64,000 bases of DNA from an uncultured Chloroflexia bacterium (GCA_963776865.1 CAVZOG010000004.1:588642-652641); one strand, 5' to 3'. Positions 6,043 through 37,584 are shown, numbered from the stretch's first letter. The notes: generated by a model not told the origin, from the sequence alone. Translations and numbers: made by a program.

Positions 6043-6507
6043 TCAGAACGGCTTCAGGACCATGTCAGCGATGATCGCCACCACCAAGGCGACGTCTACG
6101 ACGTACCAGAGGAGTACGCGACTCGAGCCCATCTCGCTGGCGAGCTCATCCGTCGGGCCGCCGGTGTCCGCTGTATCTGCAGCTGCCTGGCCGAAGCGCA
6201 GCGCTGGGCGCAGGAACAAGGTGCTGGTAACTAGGAACATCGCGACCAGCACGTAGGCTGCGATCAGCCAACCGTCAAGGAAATCAAAGCCGCCGGTTGC
6301 AGCCGTCAGCAGACCGAAGCCGATGCCTGACACGAGGGCAGCGATCGCGATCGGACCGGCACGAAGCCGTTTTTCGAGCCGATAGATCGCCGCGAGGGCA
6401 CGAACGTCGCGTCGGGAGATGGCGGCGGCAAAGAGGGTCTCCAAGCCGATCTCGATCGTCACCATGACGAACATCGACAGGATGTGCAGGAACTTGAAGA
6501 TCAGCAT
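6043..6507 (-). CDS. integral membrane protein (DUF2269-like)
   Basis: 154-aa ORF with four helices. The start MLIFKFLHILSMFVMVTIEIG is typical of that family as I remember it. Confidence 0.5.
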   Translation of the reverse strand: MLIFKFLHILSMFVMVTIEIGLETLFAAAISRRDVRALAAIYRLEKRLRAGPIAIAALVSGIGFGLLTAATGGFDFLDGWLIAAYVLVAMFLVTSTLFLRPALRFGQAAADTADTGGPTDELASEMGSSRVLLWYVVDVALVVAIIADMVLKPF

Positions 6508-6727
6508 CGAATGCTCCTATCCGTCCTGCTCCCAAACCGGCATTCTCATTTCGCTGGTGTGAGCTCCCCCTTAGCCTACGCTCGGCCGTCCACCTTTCCT
6601 CGTGAGTCGTTTCCAATCCTGTGACTCGACGCCGCTGATTTCTTGTAGGCAGCACGTCACCTCGCGAACGACGATTTCGCAGTCGACGCCATCGCTTGCG
6701 TGATGACGCGGGGCGTACGCTGATCGC

Positions 6728-9630
6728 ATGAGGCCAGCCGTGGCCCGTGCTCCGTTGATCGGGCGTAGCCGGGAAATGGCGATCCTGCAGTCCGCGCTGC
6801 GCCAGGCACGCGGCGGGCGCGGTAGTGCCGTCATGCTGGAAGGTGAGCCGGGCATCGGGAAGACGCGGCTGGCGCGCGAGCTCGCCGAGTCGGCCGATAC
6901 CGACTTCCTCGTCGTGCAGGCATCGCCCTATGACACCGAATGGACGCCACCGTTCGCGCTCTGGTCGCAAGCCCTTCGCCAGCTCGGTGACCGCCCGATC
7001 GACGATCTTCCCGGCGCGCAACGGGCTGTTCTTCTGGAGGTGATGCCCGACTTGGGGGATCCCGATGCCTCTGAGGCACCGCCCAGGCTGCCCGAGGAGA
7101 GGGTCAATTCCGGGCGATCGACGCTGTCGCGCGAGTGCTGCTCGATTCGGCCGAGCGACAGCCATTGCTGGCGGTTCTCGATGACCTCCAATGGGCGGAT
7201 CCGCAATCGCTCGATGTGGTCGCGTATGTCGCACGGTTTCTACCGACTGCTCGACTGGTTCTCGTCGCGGCGTATCGGAGTGGGAGCATCGGCCTCGATC
7301 ACCCACTCGCGCGGTCGCTCGCCGAGCTCGACCGACACGGGGCTGGCACCCACATCGCGCTCGGACCCCTGCCCGACGACGCCGCGCGCGAGCTCGTAGA
7401 CGCGCTTGCCACGGACGTTGAACCCGGCCTCGCCCAAGAGATCGTTCTCGAGGCGCGTGGTCACCCGTTCTTCATCACCGAGGTCGTGCGACATCTCGGC
7501 GAAGTCGCCGCTCCCAATGCTCCCGGGACTGGCCTGCCCGTGCCGCAGAGCGTCCGTAACGCCGTCGCCCGCCGGCTTGCCCACCTGTCACCGAATACCA
7601 GGCGTGTGCTCGCAGTGGCCGCGGCCTTCACCGGGCCGTTCGACTTTTCTGTTCTGGCGGCGATGGTGGATCTCGACGAGGACAAGCTGTTGGCCGCGAT
7701 CGATGAGGCGCTCCAGGCCCAGATCCTGAGTAGCGCAGGGGAGGACCAGTACGAGTTCTCTCACGCCTTGATCCGCCGCGCTCTTTACGACGAGATGAGC
7801 CCGAGCCGACGCGCCCGCCTCCACCGACGCATCGCCCAGGCGCTGGAGCAGGTGTTCGCAGGACACGAGCTTGAGCATGCCGGCGAGCTCGCCGCTCAAT
7901 ACCGGGCCTCGATTTCGTTGCCCGGTGCCGCGCATGGCGTCCGCTACGCAATGGCCGCCGCCGAGACTGCGCGCGCCACGCACGCGTGGGAGCAGGCAGT
8001 CGGGTCACTAAAGGTTGCCAGCGAGCTTGCCGTTGATGCCGGGATCCAGGTCCAATGTGACGTTGCCTGCCGTCTGGCCGTTGCCGAGGCAGAGGCGCTT
8101 CAGCTTGATGAGGCAGCGCGCTCGGCGGATAAAGCGCTCGAGCTGCTCGACGCGGCCGGTGCGAGCGGGGTGCGCGTTGCCGAATTTGTTGCTGCGGTCG
8201 CCCGACCCCTTCAGCGGGCCAGCACTACGGCCTGGTCACTCTATGCGGGCAGCGGACACGGCGAGGTTATCGACGGCCTGCTCGCGCGCGGGCTGAACGC
8301 CTTGGGCGACCAGCGTGACATCCATTGGGCGCGCCTCAAGCTACTGGAGCGTCGAATGGAACCCGACGATGCAGGCCCGATCAACAGCGGTCGATGGCTC
8401 ACGTTCGACCCATTGGCAGTGGCGATTGCCAGGGCTGATGGCGATGAAGACGACTACAGCTCGACCTTGGCCTCGGAAGACCCGCACTCGCTCGATGAGA
8501 CGCGGCAAATCCTGAAGCTCGCCGACACCTGGACGTCACCAAGCGCAACGACGAGCGCGCACAGTATGGTGTTGGAGACCCTGGTTTACCAACACGGTGC
8601 GCTGCGAGAGGCACTCGACGTGGCCACCAAATGCTGGCCTTCAGCGAAAAGGTCGGGTCTTTGCTCGGGCAGGCCAGAGCGCTCAGTTCACTCGCCTACA
8701 ACCGGGCGCGGCTCGGCCAGTTCGACGCGGCCGTCAAGGACGCCCGACGTTCCGATGAACTGCTCTCCCGACTGACAATCGGGGCGGCCCAGGCAAACCC
8801 CGACGTAAATACGGAGGCTCGTGCCCTTCGTGTGCAGCACGCCGACTGGCCAGTCCTGGCGCGGTTCTATCGCGATTCAGCGTTGGATCAACGGGGATCG
8901 CCATCGCAGTCGGCCCTGCTAGAGGCCGCGGTGGCGGCGGAAGCGTTCGTCCTCGCAGGCGAGCCTGAAGAAGCGATCCCGCTTCTCGGATGGGCGCTGC
9001 CGGCGATCATAGCCTCGGAGCCGACGCGCCAACTTCAAAACGGCGCCGTTGCCTTCTCCGGCGGCGCGATCTGGGCACTGGGCAAGCACGACATGGCACC
9101 AGCGGTGCGGGATGCCGCGTGGAAGGTCATTGAAGCGGGCGTCGGAGATTGCTGGCATTCGTCGAACGAGCTAACTGTGGCGCGAATGTCGTCAGTGCTG
9201 GGCGATCTGGCCGTCGCCGAGGACTGGTTCGATCGCGCCCGCGCATGCGCTCGACGCCTCCGGCCAGCGGCCGCTCCGTGCCATCGTGGATCTGGACGAG
9301 GCGAGGCATCGACTGCGGCACTCCCTGCCGGGGGCGCCGCACCTGCTCGCAACGGCACGGCAGCAGTTCGTCGGCCTCGAGATGTCCGAATGGGTGGCAC
9401 GCACCGACGCCCTGATCGCGGAATCGGGAAAATCCTATCCGGCGCACCTGACCGCTCGGGAAGTGGAGGTGCTGCGCCTGGTCGCGGCGGGACTGACGAA
9501 CGCGGAGATTGCGGCCGACTTCGTGATCAGCTCTCACACCGTGGAACGCCACCTCGCGAATGCCTATCGAAAGATAGGCGCCCGAAACCGAGCCGAGGCT
9601 GCCGCGTACGTCCTGCAGGCGGGGCTGTAG
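6728..9630 (+). pseudogene. large LuxR-family ATP-binding regulator (LAL/MalT-like), frame interrupted as assembled
   Basis: Walker A GEPGIGKTRLA is in 6728-7399. LLAVLDDLQWADPQSL and the helical body are in 7135-8775 in another frame. More TPR-like helices are in 8631-~9290 in a third frame. The LuxR HTH LTAREVEVLRLVAAGLTNAEIAADFVISSHTVERHL runs in 9286-9630 to the TAG. There are at least 3 frame changes. Confidence 0.8.
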
Positions 9631-9720
9631 CGGACGACGGGCGAACTACATAGTCCCGTCGGCGCGAAATACATGGTTTCCGGGATGATGCCCGCCCGCT
9701 CGCTCCTAGCGTCGTGTGCG

Positions 9721-10059
9721 ATGCATGGACTACTCATCGAGTACGAGCTGAATGGGACGACGGCAGTTGAGCACGCCGAGCTTTCCACTGCGCTGACACC
9801 AGCCCTGGCGGCGGTGCGTGGCCTCGTCTCGCTCACCTGGCTGAGCAACGAGACCACCGGCTGCTACGGCGCCTTCTACGTCTTCGAGCAGAAGCCTGCC
9901 TTCGACGCATTCGTGGCCGGTGAGCTGTACGAGGCGCTCCGCAGCCGGAATCCATTCGCGGGCTTGTGGCTCATGACTTTTCGGTCCAGCAGGTTCTGGG
10001 GCACCCACGGCGGCGCAAATTGCGACGCCATGACCCCCGCATCGCGAAAGGAGAGGTGA
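9721..10059 (+). CDS. YdhR-like small dimeric alpha/beta-barrel (putative monooxygenase) protein
   Basis: ATG 9721. MHGLLIEYELNG..LVSLTWLSNETTGCYGAFYVFEQKPAFDAFV follows the YdhR pattern. The C-terminus (after about 9965) may be frameshifted, since the alternative frame reads AGLVAHDFSVQQVLG. Confidence 0.5.
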   Translation: MHGLLIEYELNGTTAVEHAELSTALTPALAAVRGLVSLTWLSNETTGCYGAFYVFEQKPAFDAFVAGELYEALRSRNPFAGLWLMTFRSSRFWGTHGGANCDAMTPASRKER

Positions 10060-10060
10060 G

Positions 10061-10512
10061 ATGGACCGCCCAGGACTCAGGTTTCGAAATCAGATTGGCC
10101 CGATAGCACTCGCTGTGCTCGCGACACTCATGGCCTTTCCGGCCACGGGCCTCGCAACCGCTCCCGGGCCGCCCGACGTTGAGGTCGTGCCACCGGTGGT
10201 GATCCACACCGAGCGCGGCGACGAGCCGGTGACGTTCGTGCCCGGCCAGATCACCTTCACCTTCACCGACGGCAGCACGAGCGAGTGCGTCATCGACCCG
10301 CCGTGCCGCCCAGCCCGTGCAGCGAGCTGATGACCACCCCCGGTCCGCCGGACGTCGACATCACGCCGCCCAGCCCGATCCTCGGCGAGGACGGTGGCCT
10401 GGTCGGCTTCGAACCGGGCCTGATCCTGATCACGTTCGACGACGGCAGCCAGCGCTCGTGCGTCATCGATCCGGCCCTGCCGCCGAACCCGTGCACCGAG
10501 GGCGTGCGCTGA
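10061..10512 (+). pseudogene. small secreted protein with two tandem ~50-aa Cys-containing repeats, one frameshift
   Basis: Signal peptide MDRPGLRFRNQIGPIALAVLATLMAFPATGLA. Repeat 1 is PGPPDVEVVPP..TFTDGSTSECVIDPPCRP and repeat 2 is PGPPDVDITPP..TFDDGSQRSCVIDPALPPNPC. The frame changes near 10305 (ORFs 10061-10330 and 10285-10512). Confidence 0.5.
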
Positions 10513-10557
10513 TCGGCCACGAACTATCGAAGCCACCAAGCCGTGACGCGAGAGGAG

Positions 10558-11453
10558 ATGCAGAAAATGAAGCGAATGCTGTTGACCGTGGCATTTGTCG
10601 CGGCAATTCTTGTGACTACTGCAGGCACCGCGAGTGCGATCACCTGGGGGGAGAGTGATGGTGACGGCCATCCGCACGTCGTGGCGATGGCGCTGTTCCA
10701 GAACGGACAGGGTCCTTTCCTATGCTCGGGGACCCTGCTCACTCCCGACTTGGTTCTCACCGCCGGACACTGCGCCGGCTTACCTCGATGAGAACGGCGG
10801 CCTTCACGCCAACGACGCGACCTATGTCACGAACGTTCCGGACATCGCGCCGCTGTTCGCGGAGGTGCTCGGGACCGATATACGGCGGGAACCTATTGGC
10901 TTTCTTTGAAGGCGAGTTTGTGAAGGGCGAGGCCATCCCTCATCCCGAATTCGCAGAGTTCACGGGCTATCCGGATCCCGATACGTTCGACATCGGGTTG
11001 GTGAGGCTCAACGAAGAGATCAACGTACCCGAGTACGGAGTCATGCCTGCCCTCGGACACTTCGACTTCCTCTCCACTGCCAAGGGATCGCCCGATGAGC
11101 GCACAGTCGAGGTGGTGGGCTACGGCCTGGTCGGGACCATCCCCGCGTTCTCCGACTCCTCGATCTTCGAGCGTCGGGTGGGCTACTCGACCATCATCAA
11201 CAGTCAGTCCGCCAATGTCGGGACCCAGAACTTCCTCTACACCAACAGCCCTGGAGCTGGCTCCGGATCCGGTGGTACGTGCTCCGGCGACTCCGGAGGA
11301 CCGGCATTTTGGGTCGATCCAGGATCCGGGCCGACCAACTTGATCGTCGGGGTGAACTCGTACGGGATCGCGGCACTCTGCAACGGCAATGACTACCAGC
11401 TCCGAACCGACACCTCGGTAGCACTCGACTTCGTGAACACCTATCTCCCTTAG
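10558..11453 (+). pseudogene. secreted trypsin-like serine protease (S1 family), frame interrupted as assembled
   Basis: GAGAGGA precedes ATG 10558, which gives signal peptide MQKMKRMLLTVAFVAAILVTTAGTASA. His motif LTAGHCAG is in 10543-10791. Ser motif CSGDSGGPAF is in 10722-11453. A middle piece lies in the frame of 10634-10909. There are at least 2 frame changes. Confidence 0.8.
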
Positions 11454-11532
11454 TCGCCATATCCAGGGCGCTCGACTGCTGATCACGCCCGAACCATCGA
11501 TGGGCAGCACCCATCGAGAAGAGAGAACTGAG

Positions 11533-12443
11533 ATGAACCGACTTCGAACCAGAAACTAAAGCTCACTCGAGCAGCCGCCGTAAGCGCGGTCGTCCTTTCA
11601 CTGATCGTCGCCGGCATCGCCTACGCGGCGTTTCCGACCGGCGGCGGCAACCTGCGCGCGTGCGCAAACAACTCGACCGGCGCGCTGCGCCTCCTGAATT
11701 CCGGCCAGACCTGCACCGCCAAGGAGACGGCGATCAGGATCGCCAGCGCCGATGGCACCGGCCGCGTCGCCGACTCACAGAAGCTCGACGGCAAGGACTC
11801 GGCCGCGTTCGTCCAGAACGGCGCAGTTGCGGGTGGTGCCCTCACGGGGACCTACCCCAACCCCGGAGTCGGCAACAACTCCATCTTCGGTGCCCACGTC
11901 AGCGACACAACGTTCAGCGACGGCGACATCGTGCCCAACACCGCCGGTGGCCTGCTCAAGTCGTTCCACATCCCCAATCGGCGCCATCCAGAGTTCTGAG
12001 ATCGCCGACAACACCGTCAGCGCTGCCGACATCGACGAAGCGACGCTGCGCCAGCGCTCGACGGCCACGACGCTTTCAACAAGAAGTGCGACCCGCATCC
12101 CGACAGCGGCTTCATCCCGTGCGCCTCCGTGACGTTCATCACCGGCCGCCAGATGCCGATATTCATGACCGTCGTCTACTCGATCTACCACGAGATCATC
12201 GACCAGAATTCGACATCGGGCGAATGCAAAACCAGGCTCGATGGCGTGGACCAGGGGTCCGTTCCCAGCGGAGATTTGGATCCCAGCGTAGCCATAGCTC
12301 CAGACTCGGGAGTGCCGATGGTCGACGTCGTCTCGGTATCTGCGGGTACACACACGCTCGCATTCCTTTGCAGGCAGCTCGGTCCGATGGACATCGTCTT
12401 CGGCGACATCCGCATGGCGGTGCTCGAACTGGGCATGGACTAG
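11533..12443 (+). pseudogene. N-terminally anchored/secreted protein, unknown family, frame interrupted as assembled
   Basis: ATG 11533 gives MNRLRTR. Adding one A at 11553-11555 joins it to KLKLTRAAAVSAVVLSLIVAGIAYAAFPTGGGNLRACANNSTGALRLL. Later pieces are IGAIQSSEIADNTVSAADIDEATL (frame of 11752) and 12129-12443. The long ORFs 11660-12460 and 11775-12728 look spurious. Confidence 0.45.
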
Positions 12444-13255
12444 TAATTGCCGGCAGCTAGCGGAGTCGAGCGGCCGAGGACGTATACCTCGAGCGGCGCA
12501 CTCTTGCCTTTCAGAGACAGCGTCCGCCGCTCGACCTCCAACGCCAGTAGGCCTGCGTTGGTCGCGGCCGTCTCCGTGACGAGTATTTCGCCCGCCTCTG
12601 CGGCTGATGCCAGGCGGGCAGTCGTATTCACCGTGTCGCCCATGGCAGTGAGTTCGGTGTCGGGTCCTTCGCCTACCGCGCCGACGTACGCCAGCCCCGT
12701 GTTGACCCCGACACCAACCGGCAACCACGGCGTGTCAGTCCCATGGCCGATCCGGCCGAGCAGATCCATCGCCGCATCAATGGCCCGCCGCGCGTGGCGA
12801 GGTCCGGCCATCGACGGAACGAAGATGCCAATGACCTCGTCGCCCACGAACTTGTCGACGATGGCGTCATACCGCACCAGCACATCGGTGGCCGTGTCGT
12901 AGAAGCGGCCCATCAAGCGATTGAACTCGCGTGGCCCCATGCCCTCGGCCAAGGGCGTCGAATCACGTACATCGGCGAAGAGCAGGCTGCATTCCACCTC
13001 CGCCCCACCATGGCTTCGACGCAGCTCACGGAAGCACCCAGTGCAGTACTTGGCGTTCTTTGTCCACGGACCGAGGCCCATGGCCCTCGAGGCCAACCCA
13101 CCCGGGCCGCCGAACGGTCGTGTGCACCACTTGCAGCGGGGCGGGCTGGGCAGCCTGCCCCAGAAGCGCCGCTTGCGCAGCACCGGATTGGGGTCTGTCA
13201 GGAGGGATCGCCATTCCGCTTCGCTCAACACCTGGTCGGACGACTCCGAGGCCAT
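12440..13255 (-). CDS. class III adenylate/guanylate cyclase with N-terminal Cys-rich (zinc-ribbon-like) region
   Basis: CKWC..YCTGC lies at the N-terminus. The catalytic core is ECSLLFADVRDSTPL..VDKFVGDEVIGIF..GVNTGLAYVG..TAMGDTVNTTARL. Confidence 0.8.
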   Translation of the reverse strand: MASESSDQVLSEAEWRSLLTDPNPVLRKRRFWGRLPSPPRCKWCTRPFGGPGGLASRAMGLGPWTKNAKYCTGCFRELRRSHGGAEVECSLLFADVRDSTPLAEGMGPREFNRLMGRFYDTATDVLVRYDAIVDKFVGDEVIGIFVPSMAGPRHARRAIDAAMDLLGRIGHGTDTPWLPVGVGVNTGLAYVGAVGEGPDTELTAMGDTVNTTARLASAAEAGEILVTETAATNAGLLALEVERRTLSLKGKSAPLEVYVLGRSTPLAAGNY

Positions 13256-24216: not shown

Positions 24217-24405
24217 GCTGCTTCTCCTTGGTCTTGACGGTGGCGTATTCGACACGAAGCGGGTTCGCCCGTGGCTCTCCGTCTTTCGATGGGCCAAAGG
24301 ATCAAGCGGTTCGCTGCCTTGCAGTCGATGAACGAAGTGTACCACATGACACAGGCCGTGTAATATTCGTGACAGCCTAATACGAGTGGATACGAGGTCA
24401 AACGA

Positions 24406-24828
24406 GTGCCCAGAATCGAGTTCGAGGCAGATACAGAGGAGCAGCTGCTTGCCCTGGCGTGGCGCTGGGTGATGGGCCCGGAGCAGACATCGGGCGGCTC
24501 CGTCGTAGACGTTGCTGACCAGGCCGAGCTCCACCGTCGCCAGCTTGGCGAGGCGCTGAATGCCATTCGGGGATCCGATAGCAGACGGCTGCTGCGCGAG
24601 GTCGCCGAGCTGTCCCTTCATGGGTCGGCGCTTGTTCTCAACGCAGACCTCGCGGCTCGCTACGGCAAGCGGACGGGCACCGCCTTCGCCGGTATCGTGG
24701 CTGGCCCGAACAAGGTCATGCGTCGCGTCGCGCGACGCGACCTGGTCACCTGGGACGCCGATGCGCACGGCTATCGCATGGATCCCGTCGACGCAGAGAT
24801 CATCCTCCAGCGCTGGCCGGTGGCATAG
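24406..24828 (+). CDS. hypothetical protein
   Basis: 140-aa ORF with a GTG start and balanced amino-acid composition. No motif recognised. Confidence 0.4.
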   Translation: MPRIEFEADTEEQLLALAWRWVMGPEQTSGGSVVDVADQAELHRRQLGEALNAIRGSDSRRLLREVAELSLHGSALVLNADLAARYGKRTGTAFAGIVAGPNKVMRRVARRDLVTWDADAHGYRMDPVDAEIILQRWPVA

Positions 24829-25879: not shown

Positions 25880-26722
25880 ATGACGACCTACGCTCGACCC
25901 GACGTACTGATCACCACTGACGAGCTCGCGGCCAGCCTGCAGACCGGCAACTACGCGATCGTCGAGGTCGATGAGGACACCGACGCCTACGCCGCGGGCC
26001 ACATCCCCGGCGCGATCAGCATCAACTGGTCGACCGAGCTGCGCTACCCGGCCCGGCGCGACTTCATCGATCGTGCCGCGCTGGCCGAGCTGCTCGGCAG
26101 CAAGGGCGTGTCCAACGACCAGGTGATCGTCCTGTACAGCGGCAACAACAACTGGTTCGCGACCTACGCCTACTGGCTCTTCGCCCTGCGCGGCGTCGAG
26201 AACGTCAAGCTGCTCGACGGCGGCCGCAAGAAGTGGGAGCTCGAAGGCCTTCCGCTGACGCAGGAGACACCGGCCGCCAATCCGACCACGTTCCAGCCGG
26301 GACCGGAGCGGCCCGAGCTGCGCGTCCAGCGCAACGCGGTCCTCGACCTGGTCGCCAAGGGCAGCGGCCGTTTCGTCGACGTGCGCTCGCCTGAGGAGTT
26401 CCGCGGCGAGCGGATCACGCCGCCGCACCTCCCGAATGAGGGTGCCCAGGTGCCCGGCCACATCCCCGGCGCGGCGAACGTGCCGTGGTCCAAGGCCGCC
26501 AACGAGGACGGCACGTTCAAGTCAGCCGACGAGCTGCGCCAGCTGTACTCCGCCGCAGGTGTAGCAGCCAACGGGCCGATCGTCGCCTATTGCCGAATCG
26601 GTGAGCGCGCCAGCCACACCTGGTTCGTGCTCGATCGGTTGCTCGGCCTTCCCAACGTGAGCAACTACGACGGCTCGTGGACCGAGTACGGCAGCCTCGT
26701 CGACGTGCCCGTGGAGCGCTGA
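25880..26722 (+). CDS. sseA: two-domain rhodanese (thiosulfate / 3-mercaptopyruvate sulfurtransferase)
   Basis: GGAG lies 12 nt before ATG 25880. MTTYARPDVLITTDELA..GHIPGAISINW is the first rhodanese domain. The active-site loop is AYCRIGERASHTWF. Confidence 0.85.
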   Translation: MTTYARPDVLITTDELAASLQTGNYAIVEVDEDTDAYAAGHIPGAISINWSTELRYPARRDFIDRAALAELLGSKGVSNDQVIVLYSGNNNWFATYAYWLFALRGVENVKLLDGGRKKWELEGLPLTQETPAANPTTFQPGPERPELRVQRNAVLDLVAKGSGRFVDVRSPEEFRGERITPPHLPNEGAQVPGHIPGAANVPWSKAANEDGTFKSADELRQLYSAAGVAANGPIVAYCRIGERASHTWFVLDRLLGLPNVSNYDGSWTEYGSLVDVPVER

Positions 26723-28092
26723 GTGGCGACCACCATCGCCATCGTCGGCGGCGGTGCGTCGGGCACGATCAGCGCCATCTCGCTGTTGCGCCACCCATCG
26801 CCAGAGCCCAGGCGCGTCGTCGTCATTGAACCGTCAACGCGTCTGGGCGCCGGAGTGGCGTACGGCACCCAATCCGAAGCTCACCTGCTCAACGTCCGTG
26901 CCAGCGGTATGAGCGCACTTGCCGACGATCCCAGCCACTTCCTCGCCTGGGGGCGGGAGTGGGGGATCGCGGCCACCGGGGCGGAGTTCGTGCCGCGCCT
27001 TCACTACGGCCGGTACCTGCGCGACACCCTGGCCACGGCCGAGGCCTACGCTCCGGCGAGCTCCAAGTTTGCGCACCGACCACGCGCCGTCACCGCAATT
27101 CGGCCGACTGTCCCCGGTTCGGACAGCTTCACGCTGTTGCTCGACGACGACACCGAGCTGTCAGCGGATCACGTCGTCCTCGCCACGGGCAACCATTTCT
27201 CGGCGCCGGCGTGGCTGCCGCGGCACCCGTGCGTTGTCGCCGATCCGTGGCAGCCCGGCGCGGTCGAGGCGCTCAGCGGCGCCGGCAGTGTGCTGGTCAT
27301 CGGGACCGGCCTGACGGCAGTCGATGTCGTCCTGACCCTGCGCGACTCCGGCTTTCAGCGGCACGGCGCACCTCGTTTCGAGCCACGGCCTGTTTCCAGC
27401 CACTCACCGTGAAGGGGCGCCTCGTGCCCAGGCGCGCCCGCCGGCGATCAACGCTGGCTACGCGGCTGCCCGCACGGCGCGCGGCCTCGTGCGTGCGCTG
27501 CGTGCGGACGCGCAGCGTGCCGACGACTGGCGTGAATCGGTCGATTCGATCCGTCCCGTGACCACCGATCTGTGGCGTGGACTGCCGCGCGACGAACAGC
27601 AGCGTGCCCTGCGCCACGCCGCGCGTCATTGGGAAGTCAGGCGGCATCGAATGGCGCCGCAGGTCGCCGTCGCGCTCGAGAAGCTCCGCCACGCCGGACG
27701 GCTGACCGCCGAAAAGGGTCGCGTGGTCGACATCGAGCCAATCGGGACCGTGCTTCGCGTGACCTCGGTCCATGGCGGCATCCAGTCGATCCGCGAGGTG
27801 GACGCGGTGATCAGCTGCGTCGGCCCGACCGCTGATCCGAGGCAGACATCCGCTGCTTGCCGGACTGATCGAGGCCGGCAGCGCAACCCGTCATCCGCTC
27901 GGCCTGGGTCTCGACGTGGAGACCGACGGTCGAATTCGGAGACCTGACGGATCGGCCTGGAACACCTTCTGGTCGGTCGGCCCGCTGCGCAAGGGCGCCG
28001 ACTGGGAGTCGACTGCCATTCCGGAGATCCGGCGCCAGGCCCGCGATCTCGCCGCTTCCCTTCTCGAAACCCCCGACCACTCACTCAACTAG
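26723..28092 (+). pseudogene. FAD/NAD(P)-binding oxidoreductase (FAD-NAD(P)-binding domain family), frame interrupted
   Basis: GTG 26723 abuts the rhodanese stop. The dinucleotide fold is IAIVGGGASGTISAISLL. There is a second GXG, VLVIGTGLTAVDVVL. The body continues in 27489-27947 and a third frame, to TAG 28090-28092. Confidence 0.65.
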
Positions 28093-28108
28093 AAGGAGCA
28101 ACGCAGCC

Positions 28109-29504
28109 ATGGACATTGAGACGTTTCTGACGCCGGGGCTCGGCGACTCGACCTACCTCGTCGCGTCGGAAGGGGAGGCGGCGCTGATCGACCCGCAGCG
28201 CGATGCGTGGCGGTTCATCGAGGCCGCCGAGCGCTGGGGCTGGCGGATCACCCATGTGCTCGAGACGCACGTGCACAACGACTACGTGAGCGGCGCCCAG
28301 GAAGTGCGTGCCGCGACCGGCGCGGAGATCGTCGCGCCCGCACGCGGCGGCTACGAGTTCCCGTGGCGCGCCGCGGACGAGGGCTTCTCGGTTCCGATCG
28401 GCGACCTCGAACCTGGTCGGCATGGCGACGCCGGGCCATACGCCCGAGCACCTCGCGTGGCAGATCGTGCCCAGTGGGTCGGACGTGCCGGCGGCCGTGC
28501 TGACCGGTGGCAGCCTGCTGGTCGGCAGCGCCGGCCGGCCGGATCTGCTCGGCGCCGCCAAGATGCCCGCCCTCGCCGGGGAGCAGTTCCGGTCGCTCCA
28601 GCGCCTCGCTGCGCTGCCCGACGACGTGCGCATCCTGCCCACCCACGGCGCCGGATCGTTCTGCGTGTCTGGCGCGGGAGGAACGGAACGCGAGTCGACG
28701 GTTGGGCTCGAGCGCGAGCTGAACCCGTACCTGCAGGTGCCCGACAGCCACTCGTTCCTTCGCCTCGTCGAGCAGCGCCTGGGCCGCTATCCCTCGTACT
28801 ACAACCACGTGGGCGACATCAACCGCCACGGGCCGCTGCTGGGCGATCGCAAGTTCGCGCCGCCCAGGCTGACGCCCGACAAGCTGGTCCAGCTGGTCGA
28901 GGGCGGCGCCCGGGTTGTCGACGCGCGCGATCGATACAGCTTCGCCCGCGGCCACGTCCCCGGTGCGGTCCACGTCGAGCCGACCGACCAGTTCGGGAGC
29001 TGGGTCGGGATCGTGGTGCCGTTCAACGCGCCGATCGTGCTGATGGTCGACACGACCGACGCCACGCTCGTGCCCGAGCTCGTCGTCCAGCTGTGGCGGA
29101 TCGGCTACGAGCGCGTCATCGGCTACGTCTCCGGCGGCATCGCCCCGTGGCTCGAGGCCGGCCGCAGCGAGGTGCGCCACGAGACGCTGTCGAGCGAGCA
29201 GCTCGCTTTGGAGCTTGCCGCCGGCGACGGCCGCGCGATCATCGACGTCCGCCAGCCGACCGAGTGGCGCGAGGGCACGATCCCCGGCTCGCGCATGATC
29301 TTCGCCGGCGACGTCCGCGACGCCGTCGCCGACCTGCCCCGCGACCGAACCTGGACGCTCATCTGTAGAACCGGCGCCCGCGCCTCAATCGCCGCGAGCG
29401 TCCTCATGCGCGCCGGCCACCGCGCCCGCGTCGTCACCGAAGGCGGCGTCCCCGACATCCTCGCCTCCGCCTCGACCGCATCAACCCGTCAGGAAGCGGC
29501 GTAA
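28109..29504 (+). pseudogene. metallo-beta-lactamase-fold persulfide-dioxygenase-like enzyme fused to two rhodanese domains, one frameshift
   Basis: AAGGAG precedes ATG 28109. THVHNDYVSG is the HxHxDH-type motif. Deleting one C at 28412-28413 restores GDLELVGMATPGHTPEH. The rhodanese domains in 28308-29504 include the loop LICRTGARASIAA. Confidence 0.8.
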
Positions 29505-29735
29505 CCGGCGTGCTGACTTGACTAAGAGAACGGCTTGGCGCTGCGTTGTACGGGCTTACACGGGCCCCACGCCGGACTGATCGAAAGAGAACAGTGTGAG
29601 CCCCTGATGACGTAGGCTTGACGCTCACCTTGGTTCCCGATGAAAACTCGGGTGGTCCGACCCATCCGATGCCACTAGCAGCGTCGGCAGCACCAGATCT
29701 TGAAATCCAGAGCCGCCAATTGGCACCTCGCCCTG

Positions 29736-30188
29736 CTACGACACGCCACCTGAGGGCACGATGACTGGCTGCCGGCCGAACTCAATCAAGACAAGTGCCT
29801 CGAGCAACTTCATCTGCTGCACAGAGAACGGCGAAGCGGTCACCAGACCAGGCATCAACGTGAACCCACCTTCCGGGATTGACAACGACCATCGGCGCTG
29901 GATTGTCGCAATGAAGGCCACGCCTACGTCACGGCTTACCGCTAGTTCCAGCATCATGTCCGCGTCACTCGCGCCGGATGCTCCGCTAACCAGAAGCTGT
30001 GACGCGTGAGGCTTTGCCTCAGCCACAAACACAACAGGGCTCTTAATCGCCACGATGTCTGGGGCCTTCCATCTCCCGGTCGACGACCTGAAGCCAACCG
30101 CGACTTGCGTCGGACGAGCAAGCAGTACCCGCCAACTATTCGACCGCAGCCATTGCGCCGCCCAACTCACCAAGTCCCCCTCTGACAC
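29736..30188 (-). CDS. 150-aa PD-(D/E)xK (restriction-endonuclease-like) protein
   Basis: GTG 30188 lies 5 nt after the stop of the 411-aa ORF. The core is ..GRWKAPDIVAIKSPVVFVAEAKPH (D ... E-x-K on consecutive strands) after an N-terminal helix. The sequence context is low-GC. Confidence 0.55.
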   Translation of the reverse strand: MSEGDLVSWAAQWLRSNSWRVLLARPTQVAVGFRSSTGRWKAPDIVAIKSPVVFVAEAKPHASQLLVSGASGASDADMMLELAVSRDVGVAFIATIQRRWSLSIPEGGFTLMPGLVTASPFSVQQMKLLEALVLIEFGRQPVIVPSGGVS

Positions 30189-30193
30189 GTGGG

Positions 30194-31429
30194 TCAGAAA
30201 AACACCACACCATCACGAAACACAATCAGGTCGGCTGCAAACGAGTACAGCCGCACAAAGTTTTTCATTACCTGTGCGAGGCCGCCTCCTAGATGCAGAG
30301 TGTATGTGGGGATTCGGGTCCGAATGTCAGCGAAGTTTGTAGCTTGGAGCGGCGAGCGCTCCCAAGCGTCGCGTACATACTGAGCGAAGTCGGCAAAGTA
30401 CAAGAGCCCTAGGTCTATCACAAGATTGGCGTCGCGTTGCTCAGGCGTTGGACCCGTGCGACAGAAAAGGTAGTCGAAGACCAAAGGCTGCTGCGTGTAT
30501 GGGTCACCTCCCTTCCGGGCGATGCGATCGCGCAGAGTCGCCCTAGCTGCATTGACGGCTCCGGCATCATCAAGGTCGACTAGGACCGGTGTAAACACGA
30601 TGTTGCGGTCCCGTTTTACGATGCGGTCCGGAATCTTGGGCGGTAGTTGCAAACCTCGAGCACCGAGCAAGGCAAGAAGTTCAGCGTGTGTAAGTGGCCG
30701 ACCCGCTGGCATTCGATGCGTAAGCCGCTGAAAATCGCCGATCGCCGGAATTTGACGGTAGGCAACCTGACGCAAGTCATTCCGTAAGTCGACGATCATG
30801 CGTTCCGTCATTAAGTCGCGAAGGCTAAGGCCCTTCACGGCTGCATCGAGCACCATGTCGAAGAATGCGATAGTCCGGGCGATGCTGGGTGCATCGTGCG
30901 GCGGCAGGTCGCCGTAAGTAGCGTCGCCGTCCAAGCTGGCTCCGTCCGTTGACGGCCATTCTGCAATGTAGATTGGTGTTTGATGAATCTCGACCACTCG
31001 ATCGTACGCGAAAAAGAAGAATGGATCCGTGCGACCAGCAAAAGGTCTGCGGGCGGGCATGTCCCGCGGTGCTACGAATGCGCCGGGTATTCCCTCTTGT
31101 GCGCAACCAACGAGATTCGGAAAGCGCTGGATCCAGTGGTCACGCGCCGCGACGTGCTCGGTGACGTCTAGAGCAAAGATTGGTCGTATTGGTCGTCGGC
31201 CGTCGTCCACCGTCACTACGAGATCTGGCTTTGCGAAGAAGAGCAGACGACGGAGGCTTTCCGGTAGCTCGGCAAAGGCTGCGTGGCTGTTTTGTTGCGG
31301 TAGCGTGCCAACGTCCACGGTTACGACACCAGCCGTCTCAAGATCTCGAAGCGATGTGTACGCCGAATGTAGTCCCGCCCAAGCCCGTTCGCGGTGGTGA
31401 AGCAGCTGCACGCCGATCGGCGTGGTCAC
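30194..31429 (-). CDS. 411-aa protein of unknown family, candidate restriction/specificity component
   Basis: Intact ORF. Its GTG overlaps the M2 stop (GTGA at 31426-31429). I saw no ATPase, HNH, GIY-YIG or PLD motif. The only nuclease-like stretch is KPDLVVTVDD..FALDVTEH. Confidence 0.6.
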   Translation of the reverse strand: MTTPIGVQLLHHRERAWAGLHSAYTSLRDLETAGVVTVDVGTLPQQNSHAAFAELPESLRRLLFFAKPDLVVTVDDGRRPIRPIFALDVTEHVAARDHWIQRFPNLVGCAQEGIPGAFVAPRDMPARRPFAGRTDPFFFFAYDRVVEIHQTPIYIAEWPSTDGASLDGDATYGDLPPHDAPSIARTIAFFDMVLDAAVKGLSLRDLMTERMIVDLRNDLRQVAYRQIPAIGDFQRLTHRMPAGRPLTHAELLALLGARGLQLPPKIPDRIVKRDRNIVFTPVLVDLDDAGAVNAARATLRDRIARKGGDPYTQQPLVFDYLFCRTGPTPEQRDANLVIDLGLLYFADFAQYVRDAWERSPLQATNFADIRTRIPTYTLHLGGGLAQVMKNFVRLYSFAADLIVFRDGVVFF

Positions 31430-32642
31430 GGCTTTCTGAGCACCGTCACAGTGTCGTGGCCAATCAAGCCGGCCGTCGAGTGACGAGTCAACTTCAGACG
31501 TTGCCGGAATAACTCGTAGCTAAACGTCAAGGAGACCGAGGCGCCTCGGTCGGTGGCCATACCTACAAGCCGGCCCGAAGTATCTAGTGATACTCCCTTG
31601 ACGCGGTTCGTTCCACATACAAGTACCACATGTCCACCTGGCCGAACAGCGTCCAACATCGCGCCGATAGCAGTATTCATCTGCGTGAAGTACTTGTAGA
31701 CAATGTACGCACGCTTTGGTTCACCTGCGTGTACAGACTCAATCGCTGCGTTCAGATATGCAGCGGATGACCAACTGGCTGGAACACTGTGCACGTCGCG
31801 ATAATCCTGTGCGGACACCCGCTCACTACCGTAGTAAGTTCGTTCGTGTGAATGCATGTCCGCAGGAGGAATCGAACCTAATAGCAGCATTTCGTAACGA
31901 GTAGTCATCGGATAATTCATTGCGTTGATGTAGGGCGGTGACGTAACAATAAGATCAGCCCGTCCCAAGCCTACCCAGTCCATAATTCTGTCGGCCGAAC
32001 CTTGGACAACGGATGCGGTTACATCGTCGGGAAGGCGAGCCAAGGTATGCGCCAGGCGTTCCGTCGCCTTTGGGAGACGCCTCGCCAGGACCTTGGCTGG
32101 GCTGGGGGTTCCTTGGGCGACCTTGACCGGATCACGCTTCACCTTCAACGACCTTCATCCTGGTAGGAGAATGTCCGGATGGCTCCGGCGAGCACGCTCT
32201 TGAAAAACGGCTGCATCTCGATGGGCAAGTCGGTTTCAATAAACGCCCGCAACCGGGCAAACTCAGTCAGATGCCGCGTGTCAAACCAAAAGTCATCGAG
32301 GGCGAAAGTCATTCGTCGAGCGCGAGGAAGTGTATGAGGTCTGCGACAGACTTCGACGAGTGAGGACATGGCGCGCCACAGCAGTTCTTGCCTAACCTTG
32401 GTTGTCTTGGCGGTTGTTAGCAGGCAGGCATACGGGTTGACGTCCATGGCGAGAGTGTTTCTACCTGCAAGCATTGCCTCCAGAGCAGTCGTGCCCGAGC
32501 CAGAGAACGGATCTACCACAAGTGATGCTGGGGTGGAGTACGTTGAGATGGCCCATGCTGGCACGTCCGGAATGAACTTCGATGGAAAGGCAGCGATGGA
32601 ATGGGCTCCTCGGTTGCCATCGTTCGTGCTGGCCAAGGCCAC
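31426..32642 (-). pseudogene. N4/N6 DNA methyltransferase M2, one frameshift
   Basis: 32145-32642 carries FPSKFIPDVP..VVDPFSGSGTT (motif I). 31426-32148 carries DLIVTSPPY (motif IV) and LDAVRPGGHVVLV. Adding one A at 32147-32148 joins ..SYQDEGR to LKVKRDP. Confidence 0.8.
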
Positions 32643-32744
32643 AATCGATCCATTGGATTTGGCTGCGACAGGGATGGATACGGGCGCTAACGACGAGGTT
32701 GGGCGAGCTTCCAGGCGAAGAGCAGCTCCAGCGCGTGCGCGGGT

Positions 32745-33923
32745 CGCTTCGAAGACGAGGACACGCTGCTTTTTGGTGATAGCCGGCCGACCTCCGGCGA
32801 CGGCACGAGTGTCGCGGAACGACCGGCTGATTGACGACAGGTCATAGCTGATTTCGCCGACGAATCGCCAATCAGCTAACGCGCGAGGTCAACGTACAAC
32901 TCGCTCATATCCACGCGGCGACCCTCGAGAATGGAGTCGCCGGCGAACATGTATGCCAATTTGCTGGGCTTGAGAGTGCGGCCCGAAGCGCACCATTACG
33001 GGAGTCATGCGTCGAATGAACACGTCGACCGGCGCCTTTCGGCTCGAATGCTCGTATCGGGAGCCGATCTCGTCGGTCCTCACCTTGTCGAGATCGTATC
33101 CGAGCCAAGCCGCTCGTAGACGGTGGTAGAGGTAATAGTCGAAGCTGTTCGGATATGGTGGGGACGTGACAATGAGATCAACTGAGTCATCGGGTAAGTC
33201 AAGCTCTGACACTCGATCGGTCGAGTCGAAAATGATTTTCGCGAGCTGGCGGCCTTGCAGATCCTGCCGAAGTGACGCCATGCTCGAGACCGCAGCAGTC
33301 AACCGGCGCTTGAAACGACCCAGCGCATAGCCGTCAGGTAGGTTCTTATTGGTGGCTACATAGCGGGTTTCGCTGTCCTGATTGCTGACACTTGTGATCA
33401 CGGAGCTGAGAACGCACTCCAAGAAAACACGTGCCCGAATGTCATCGCAATCACGGATGCGAGCTAGCAGCCAAGCGAGCTCTTTCGACATGTTCGGCTG
33501 AAACCAATGACCCAAGCGATCCAAGGTAGGCAACGGCAGGTCAGGTAGTGACGCCGCATCAGCGTTGCCTATTTCCTCAAGCATGGCGACGACGGCCTCG
33601 AGGCCGTCGTCGCTCAGGGGCGTCGTCTTGGCGCGGCTGATTAGCGTCGCGATCGGATTGGAGTCGACGCCAATGCTTCGGCGGCCTTGGAGTGACGCCT
33701 CGACTAGCGTAGTGCCACTGCCACAGAACGGATCCAGAACGAGATGGCGCTCGTTCGTGTGCTCCTTGATGACATCACGTGGCAGATCGGGAATGAATTT
33801 GGCCGGGTACGGGTGCAGTCTGTGGATCGGGTGAGCGTCCGTTCCGGCCTCACCGACCCTGTAACGAAGCAGTCGGTTCAGCAGGCTGTCGCGAGCCGGC
33901 GCGCTTTTGCGTGGAGTATGCAA
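32745..33923 (-). pseudogene. N4/N6 DNA methyltransferase M1 (paralog of M2), two compensating frameshifts, 3' end uncertain
   Basis: TTG 33923 with GAGG upstream. Motifs seen are HPYPAKFIPDLP..LDPFCGSGTT and DLIVTSPPY. Homopolymer repairs at 32982-32984 and 32878-32879 restore GRTLKPSKLAYMFAGDS..DLARLADWRFVGE..KKQRVLVFE. The called ORF is 32889-33923. Confidence 0.8.
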
Positions 33924-33955
33924 CTCAGCCTCTGGCTGGACCCGATCCGAGAAGG

Positions 33956-37203
<3,248 letters not shown>

Positions 37204-37312
37204 CTCTGCTACTCCCTCTCTACCTCTCTCCGGGGGCCGACTTGGGGCATCTGGGCGATCACCCGCATCCGCCCATTGTGGTTCGGGCCGATGGCCGTGT
37301 CAAGCCACATAA

Positions 37313-37360
37313 CCACAATATCTGGTGGCTCGGCGTGATTTGTAACCCTAGCCCTAGTGT
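37313..37360. promoter_or_regulatory. two tandem NrdR-box-like palindromes upstream of nrdJ
   Basis: CCACAATATCTGGTGG (37313-37328) and ACCCTAGCCCTAGTGT (37345-37360). Each matches 11-12 of 16 positions of the acaCwAtATaTwGtgt consensus. The start-to-start spacing is 32 bp. They lie 110-157 nt upstream of the nrdJ ATG. Confidence 0.45.
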
Positions 37361-37375
37361 TTGGCCAAATTTCGT

Positions 37376-37430
37376 GGTGGACAGCCCGTGGAGCGTTCGT
37401 GGACCGTCTGGGGAACGTGCGTGGACGGCT
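37376..37430 (+). repeat. five consecutive 11-nt direct repeats (cGTGGAc core)
   Basis: The units are GGTGGACAGCC, CGTGGAGCGTT, CGTGGACCGTC, TGGGGAACGTG and CGTGGACGGCT. They lie in the divergent nrdJ / aminopeptidase intergenic region. Confidence 0.5.
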
Positions 37431-37584
37431 CCGGGCGCCTTTTAGGAAAGCTGATCTTGCTGCGATGTCGGCTGCTGCCCCACCCATCCGCCGAAAATTT
37501 CCCATTGCGCAGCGTTTGTGGCGGGCATATCGTCGCGCACAGTGGCGGCGCCCCAGCGCCGCCCGGAGGAAGAAGGAGAGGTAC

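Follow-up and report, generated by a model that had tools for sequence, protein, structure and literature searches.

A putative split BsmI-type restriction-modification operon in a low-GC island beside nrdJ of an uncultured Chloroflexia bacterium

The stretch of DNA analysed here, a 64-kb window from an uncultured Chloroflexia bacterium (GCA_963776865.1, CAVZOG010000004.1:588642-652641), contains an island at positions 29505-33955 in which three genes on the minus strand encode a fused double DNA methyltransferase and two proteins with conserved nuclease active-site motifs (Table 1). We consider it probable that the block arrived by horizontal transfer and is a Type IIS-like restriction-modification (R-M) operon of three co-directional genes, built as a split form of BsmI. 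The R-M reading is based on gene content, the fusion of the methyltransferases in relatives, catalytic conservation in the nucleases, homology to BsmI, base composition and patchy spread.

The island is the sole low-GC block of the window. Its G+C content is 0.580, compared with 0.664 for the remaining window, and when all 4451-bp windows in the 64 kb are ranked the lowest falls at 29501, the lowest elsewhere reaching 0.635. At third codon positions (GC3) the island genes have values of 0.58-0.69 versus 0.83-0.92 in the flanking genes, and the island is the unique minimum of the window for both G+C and GC3. The second-lowest kilobase in G+C, 10501-11500 (0.608), is a far weaker dip. A first-pass annotation made from the sequence had described a foreign-looking methyltransferase/nuclease island of four genes here, and much of its groundwork holds: its four hand-counted 60-nt G+C samples (30, 26, 46 and 42) are exact on recounting, it correctly placed a TTG at 33923, a GTGA overlap spanning 31426-31429 and a gap of 5 nt ahead of the GTG at 30188, and the island exactly fills the interval between the stop of the MBL-rhodanese gene (29504) and that of nrdJ (33956). 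The foreign origin that it proposed is supported by composition and by the absence of the genes from the equivalent neighbourhoods of relatives. The count of four genes does not stand, as the raw sequence consists of five open reading frame (ORF) pieces that make up a three-gene module: fused methyltransferase, large subunit and small subunit. A promoter scan found no promoter-like site in the short spacer between nrdJ and the module, and the module is therefore probably transcribed by read-through from nrdJ. The hairpin downstream of the small-subunit gene is weak evidence for an operon end, since such hairpins are no more numerous than expected from shuffled sequence.

Table 1. Features of the island, its flanks and the nrdJ 3' flanks of relatives. 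Cb and Ct, bottom- and top-strand catalytic sites; TRD, target recognition domain.
Feature	Position	Strand	Remark
Fused M1::M2 N4/N6 amino-DNA-methyltransferase	31426..33923	-	832 codons after three single-base indel corrections
Large restriction subunit (putative), 411 aa	30194..31429	-	EcoRI-like catalytic site and presumed DNA-recognition region (Cb~TRD)
Small restriction subunit (putative), 150 aa	29736..30188	-	Minimal PD-(D/E)XK nuclease (Ct site)
Out-of-frame stretch in M1	32876..32988	-	Contains TGA 32889-32891; ungapped tblastn, frame 1->2->1
Third frame change (-1), in M2	32145..32157	-	Creates TGA 32145-32147
Spacer from nrdJ stop to methyltransferase TTG, 32 nt	33924..33955	-	GAGG 5 nt upstream of TTG
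Terminator-like hairpin and T-run, candidate operon end	29649..29664	-	72 nt past small-subunit stop; consensus scan
nrdJ, class II ribonucleotide reductase (RNR)	33956..37439	-	Synteny anchor and indel-noise control; Pfam RNR barrel over three frames
MBL-fold/rhodanese gene	28070..29504	+	Synteny anchor; one frame change near 28400
Ppl-like ATPase and Type I HsdR-like protein	L058 9090-14463		3' of nrdJ
SIR2-STAND	L104 7065-9707		3' of nrdJ
Ppl-like/AAA ATPase and TCAD9	L052 8053-12298		3' of nrdJ
nSTAND3, PADLOC candidate PDC-S73	L054 9270-11567		3' of nrdJ
GajB-like helicase	L099 9589-11439		3' of nrdJ
MORC-like ATPase	L110 6448-8217		3' of nrdJ

The fused methyltransferase gene and its frame changes

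The first gene of the module encodes two amino-methyltransferase domains, M1 (~32736-33923) and M2 (~31426-32678), each with motif I followed by motif IV (DPFCGSGTT and TSPPY in M1, DPFSGSGTT and TSPPY in M2). Both motifs that define the PF01555 amino-methyltransferases, motif I (FxGxG) and motif IV ((D/N/S)PPY), are therefore present. The Pfam family N6_N4_Mtase (PF01555) matches both halves, as does the PADLOC model MTase_II (E 1.5e-54 for M1; 4e-21 and 2.3e-16 for M2). The nearest solved structures belong to both methyltransferase types, N4-cytosine and N6-adenine, and the two halves are paralogues of each other with ~35% identity. The methyltransferase stop overlaps the start of the large-subunit gene (GTGA), placing two N6_N4_Mtase domains directly upstream of nuclease genes; a Type II R-M system has a cognate methyltransferase encoded beside its endonuclease and, where the site is asymmetric, two methyltransferase activities. 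Fused double methyltransferases occur in Type IIS systems, as in M.FokI and M.Mva1269I. The island protein resembles these in joining two methyltransferase domains in a single polypeptide, presumably one for each strand of an asymmetric site; it differs in that both halves are mutually paralogous amino-methyltransferases of the N4/N6 kind with motif I preceding motif IV (SPPY).

In the raw sequence the gene is interrupted by three frame changes: +1 near 32985, -1 near 32880 and -1 near 32152. The first two, delimited with a Xanthomonas melonis query and by reading the DNA, fall at ~32981-32987 and ~32877-32881. The first-pass statement that no in-frame stop separates M1 from M2 is false for the raw sequence, in which the M1 frame ends at TGA 32889-32891, but the idea behind it, that M1 and M2 are fused, is sound: after correction they form one ORF, as in relatives. 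The island gene is collinear with single fused proteins of 820-833 aa from four other loci (L001, L002, L004 and L006), and an ungapped tblastn alignment with the fused methyltransferase of X. melonis runs from 33911 to 31435.

The three frame changes are probably assembly indels rather than signs of decay, because the neighbouring housekeeping genes are broken at a like density. Those at 26700-29500 and 33956-37439 are full of single-base frame changes when set against orthologues that are intact: nrdJ has six in 3.5 kb (queried by tblastn with L039 NrdJ, 1165 aa and unbroken), Pfam recognizing successive parts of its one RNR barrel domain in three frames, the FAD/NAD-binding gene has two and the MBL-rhodanese gene has one (both compared with intact genes of L014). 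This amounts to one break in ~700 bp (9 in ~6.3 kb) for the housekeeping genes versus one in ~830 bp (3 in 2.5 kb) for the methyltransferase gene; the 1.7 kb of the two subunit genes have none, which is not unusual at that rate (Poisson P ~0.09). Breaks of the same kind occur in related 'MFD' metagenome-assembled genomes (MAGs), and MFD MAGs derive from Nanopore sequencing (PMC12313526). The contig carrying the window measures 786 kb. The window probably stems from an indel-prone long-read assembly, and pseudogene calls within it need caution. Phase variation and programmed frameshifting were rejected as explanations, the sites being neither repeats nor long homopolymers and nrdJ and its neighbours being broken likewise.

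A methyltransferase gene with three frame changes and two premature stops could alternatively be a genuine pseudogene, and the island a decaying remnant with silent or inactive nuclease genes. None of the three sites lies in a long homopolymer, and the module does decay elsewhere, for at locus L037 the methyltransferase is almost wholly lost while both subunits, large and small, have been kept. We nevertheless regard this explanation as unlikely: the frame changes of nrdJ and the other housekeeping neighbours are of equal or higher density, the orthologues in short-read MAGs are intact (the nrdJ of L039 and the unbroken genes of L014), the Nanopore-derived MAGs break similarly, and both nuclease genes are full-length with all catalytic residues, a hazardous possession without a functioning methyltransferase.

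Far less credible is a set of four separate genes, with independent M1 and M2 followed by two effectors of which just one is a nuclease. The raw ORF list does give M1 and M2 as separate pieces, and in the characterized systems, BsrDI and BtsI, M1 and M2 are indeed separate genes (PMC1950550). However, every one of the ten relatives whose methyltransferase is intact has it as a single fused protein, the linker 32157-32876 is open in the M1 frame and aligns with these fused proteins, separate genes would require M2 to be split again at 32150, and catalytic motifs are conserved in both downstream proteins and not in one.

The two putative nuclease subunits and the enzymes they resemble

In a set of 5.8 billion clustered proteins the 411-aa large subunit has only 66 homologues at E ≤0.001, none of them named or assigned a Pfam domain; tblastn searches of 72,556 plasmids and 50,697 phage genomes returned no match to it. 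In an alignment of 52 family members P68, D69, Q101 and R102 are invariant and position 88 is acidic throughout (E in 30, D in 22, including the island copy), giving an N-terminal family motif PD-x18-(D/E)-x12-QR. This corresponds to the non-canonical Cb site, (P/A/F)D-x13-18-E-x12-QR, which was defined for BsrDI, BtsI, BsmI/Mva1269I and BsrI and tied to bottom-strand cutting by mutagenesis (Xu et al. 2007, PMC1950550); the large-subunit family carries the Cb motif of the BsmI/BsrI/BtsI/BsrDI enzymes.

An AlphaFold2 model of the 411-aa protein (mean predicted local distance difference test score, pLDDT, 95.4) had significant Foldseek matches in the PDB to four entries only, all of them BsmI (9ez5, 9ezd, 9f38 and 9ez7; E 2.7e-7 to 1.1e-6, probability 1.00, query-normalised TM-score 0.46-0.50). 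The next matches, BsaWI and EcoRI at E ~0.1, fit the EcoRI-like nature of the BsmI N-terminal domain. An exhaustive profile search extended the family to a superfamily of 156 cluster representatives, and the resulting profile, A4, recovered BsmI alone from the PDB (E 2.1e-6), aligning the PD, E and QR of the family with P90-D91, E109 and Q122-R123 of BsmI. Mutation of E109 in BsmI abolishes bottom-strand cutting, and its N-terminal domain is EcoRI-like (PMC11889245). By predicted fold and profile homology, then, the 411-aa family is a distant relative of BsmI. The PADLOC model 'Type II nicking endonuclease' also matches 51 of the 52 family members over the N-terminal core (best E 6e-8); only two of ten distant superfamily members match it, weakly (E ~6e-5), so that this link is limited to the catalytic core. 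The 156 clusters fall into length classes of ~315-335, 470-490 and 550-626 aa, which have in common the PD...E...QR core and, at the C terminus, an R-DPY-G...DY-CR-G motif and may include BtsI-, BsrDI- and BsrI-like forms.

In the 150-aa small subunit a PD-x12-ExK site of canonical form is preceded by the customary glutamate, as expected of a Ct site. Among the syntenic small ORFs of ten hosts E3, K41, P43, D44, E57, K59, L65, S74 and D75 are invariant, and E3, K41, P43-D44 and E57-A-K59 are also invariant in 26 homologues from databases. The ExKxK consensus of the family is similar to E82/K84/K86 of BsrDI-A. An AlphaFold2 model (pLDDT 88) has the PD-(D/E)XK fold, and Foldseek returned generic representatives of that fold: an R2 endonuclease domain, AF1548, MspJI, the BspD6I small subunit and Hjc. 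Pfam Hjc matches 26 of 27 small-subunit family members, weakly. With the 150-aa protein as sole query, a word-indexed search returned no homologues, and a profile of the syntenic small ORFs was needed; single-sequence searches of both proteins against the PDB, Pfam and NCBIfam likewise gave nothing significant. We assign the small protein as the putative Ct partner by its motif, size and strict synteny. In the first-pass annotation the two downstream proteins had been the presumptive effector, with a recognizable nuclease core in one of them; their motifs do point to nuclease subunits, and conserved active-site motifs are present in both.

BtsI and BsrDI, described by Xu et al. (2007, PMC1950550), are Type IIS restriction endonucleases that act as heterodimers, and by that description the island module resembles them in three ways: a large subunit with an N-terminal PD-xn-E-x12-QR and a recognition region, a separate small subunit of ~150-220 aa with a canonical PD-xn-ExK site, and two methyltransferase activities, as expected for an asymmetric site. 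In size, too, the subunits are comparable, with 328 and 164 codons in BtsI versus 411 and 150 in the island. The differences are that the methyltransferases are fused in the island and are separate M1 and M2 in BtsI/BsrDI, that the island genes form one operon in the order M-L-S, whereas those of BtsI run M1, S, M2, L and its S and L point in opposite directions, that D replaces E at position 88 in the island copy and 22 of the 52 family members, and that the island system lies very far from any characterized member. BsmI, the sole significant structural match, shares the aligned catalytic PD/E109/QR and the EcoRI-like N-terminal domain; unlike the island proteins it is one chain of 674-676 aa with a FokI-like top-strand domain fused C-terminally, a role that would fall in the island to the separate 150-aa protein. 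BsmI, Mva1269I and BsrI are single-chain Type IIS enzymes with two unlike catalytic domains, of which the island module appears to be a split counterpart.

Enzymes of the BspD6I/BstNBI type are likewise heterodimers of a large and a small subunit, and the island small subunit weakly resembles that of BspD6I (2p14, E 0.014). In contrast, the large subunit had no Foldseek match to Nt.BspD6I, and its site is an EcoRI-like Cb and not a FokI-like one. A BbvCI-type heterodimer (Type IIT), composed of related subunits of similar size with one canonical site apiece, does not fit proteins of 411 and 150 aa with differing folds and site types. As judged from sequence and models, the architecture and predicted function class are those of the BtsI/BsrDI design, in the form of a split BsmI, and not those of a new type of system.

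Distribution of the module and its possible landing site

The same three genes occur in the same order at ten loci, encoding a fused methyltransferase of 820-860 aa, a protein of ~405 aa and one of ~150-180 aa, in Xanthomonas (two loci), Oscillospiraceae, Lachnospiraceae, Christensenella, Flavobacterium, a Bathyarchaeota MAG and a metagenome contig (L036). Cultured carriers include Xanthomonas melonis NCPPB 3434 and Christensenella sp. Marseille-P2438. The small ORF is strictly syntenic across these bacteria and archaea and often overlaps the large-subunit gene. In most other hosts, too, the module is lower in G+C than its flanks (0.47-0.49 versus 0.58-0.64 in Xanthomonas; 0.62 versus 0.69-0.71 in L036). 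Foreign composition here and elsewhere, together with a spread over bacterial phyla and an archaeon, supports horizontal transfer of the module. In two Oscillospiraceae MAGs (L002 and L003, 8206-12932) it lies beside a Mob_Pre relaxase, HTH_17, DUF5906 and a phage-type integrase and also adjoins a ribosomal protein S9 gene, which suggests that it rides an integrative mobilisable element. At the eleventh locus, L037, the large and small genes are intact (6261-8696) and the methyltransferase is reduced to its last ~43 residues. Either this copy has decayed, or its restriction pair relies for protection on a methyltransferase gene at another place. Directly next to the L037 remnant lie very large helicase genes of the DEAD/Helicase_C/MZB and SNF2 types.

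The host is a Limnocylindria-type Chloroflexota MAG, and the module was absent from all 102 loci of relatives examined (22 MBL-rhodanese and 80 nrdJ loci). Two relatives (L014 and L020) are syntenic with 25.8-29.5 kb of the window, up to the MBL-rhodanese stop, and a third (L039) is syntenic with 45.9-33.96 kb, its homology ending precisely with the nrdJ stop codon. Two conserved synteny blocks thus meet exactly where the island lies. The gene that follows MBL-rhodanese in L014 (11261-11695) is a homologue of window positions 24373-24825, ~4 kb upstream of the cluster, which indicates local rearrangement around the left boundary of the island. In L039, the closest syntenic relative, a low-GC block (0.57-0.60) at 9000-13000 directly follows the intact nrdJ and encodes unknown proteins and a SHOCT/DUF4429 protein.

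The first-pass annotation had seen no integrase, tRNA or flanking repeat and had left the insertion mechanism unexplained. Our scans agree on the former, with no tRNA gene in the whole 64-kb window, no integrase-like ORF in 29.5-34 kb and no direct repeat pair bracketing the island, and on these grounds an integrase- or tRNA-associated genomic island was rejected. The placement, on the other hand, is less puzzling than it had seemed, as it fits a pattern of defence genes 3' of nrdJ. Of 60 relatives, 10 show a G+C drop of at least 4 points between nrdJ and the 3 kb that follow it, and the ORFs sampled in such flanks, listed for six relatives in Table 1, are of defence type and differ from one relative to the next. 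These observations suggest that defence genes have landed repeatedly in the nrdJ 3' flank within this Chloroflexota lineage; the idea is limited by the low-GC block being present in only those 10 relatives and by the lack of conservation of the far flank. Defence hotspots flanked by core genes and lacking integrases are known from other bacteria, and the nrdJ flank is like them in that differing defence genes lie directly 3' of nrdJ in several relatives.

The proposed system and its implications

In the proposed R-M system each methyltransferase domain would modify and so protect one strand of an asymmetric site. The large subunit would bind this site and cut one strand, acting as a nickase when alone, and the small subunit, predicted to be inactive by itself, would dock on the large one and cut the other strand, producing a double-strand break. 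Together the two would form a heterodimer in a Cb~TRD:Ct arrangement. The scheme is carried over from work on BtsI/BsrDI and BsmI. In that enzyme family both strands are cut by the heterodimer and the bottom one is nicked by a lone large subunit, with a 2-nt 3' overhang left beside an ANTG core.

Several observations weigh against this reading. The identity of the large subunit to BsmI is ~10%, the link being seen only with the broader profile A4 or with the structural model, and the narrow family profile A1 recovered no BsmI from the PDB and gave spurious weak matches only. The match to PADLOC PDLC03392 spans just ~70 N-terminal residues, and the enzymes behind that model are unnamed. The small subunit has no Foldseek match to the BsmI C-terminal domain, BsmI being absent from its top 50 matches, and PADLOC models do not recognize it either. 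The methyltransferase is broken in the raw sequence, and if its frameshifts were real with the nucleases intact there would be no working R-M system. Finally, the arrangement that would reveal an empty site, nrdJ followed directly by the MBL-rhodanese gene, for which the first-pass annotation had proposed to look, occurs in no relative examined, so the site cannot be reconstructed.

That the genes do not encode classical restriction, comprising instead a methyltransferase with a site-specific nickase and an independent small nuclease (resolvase-like or for repair), or some other unnamed defence, is very improbable: although the nearest sequence and fold matches of the small subunit (Hjc, R2 endonuclease domain, AF1548) are generic and no PADLOC or NCBIfam model recognizes either nuclease as a complete known system, the small ORF keeps its strict synteny with the large-subunit gene across bacteria and archaea, and a Cb site on a large protein with PD-ExK on a small partner is the experimentally dissected design of BtsI/BsrDI (PMC1950550).

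Returning to the split Type IIS-like operon, we lean slightly towards the further view that both proteins belong to an unrecognized, deeply divergent branch of the BsmI/BtsI/BsrDI enzymes, with a new asymmetric site, a large subunit that is a natural nickase and a cassette that travels between phyla and archaea. This view rests on the ~10% identity to BsmI, the 66 clusters in 5.8 billion proteins and the lack of a Pfam, NCBIfam or PADLOC family that covers the proteins.

The proposal gives a predicted function to a rare family labelled 'hypothetical' in all sources searched and names its candidate catalytic residues. Current defence-annotation models would call an orphan methyltransferase only at this locus and miss a complete restriction system. 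Apparent pseudogenes in this genome are most likely assembly indels, and the flank of nrdJ may have received defence genes repeatedly in this Chloroflexota lineage. As Nb.BtsI and Nb.BsrDI are commercial nicking enzymes obtained from split BsmI-type enzymes, a divergent branch of the family could yield a new specificity.

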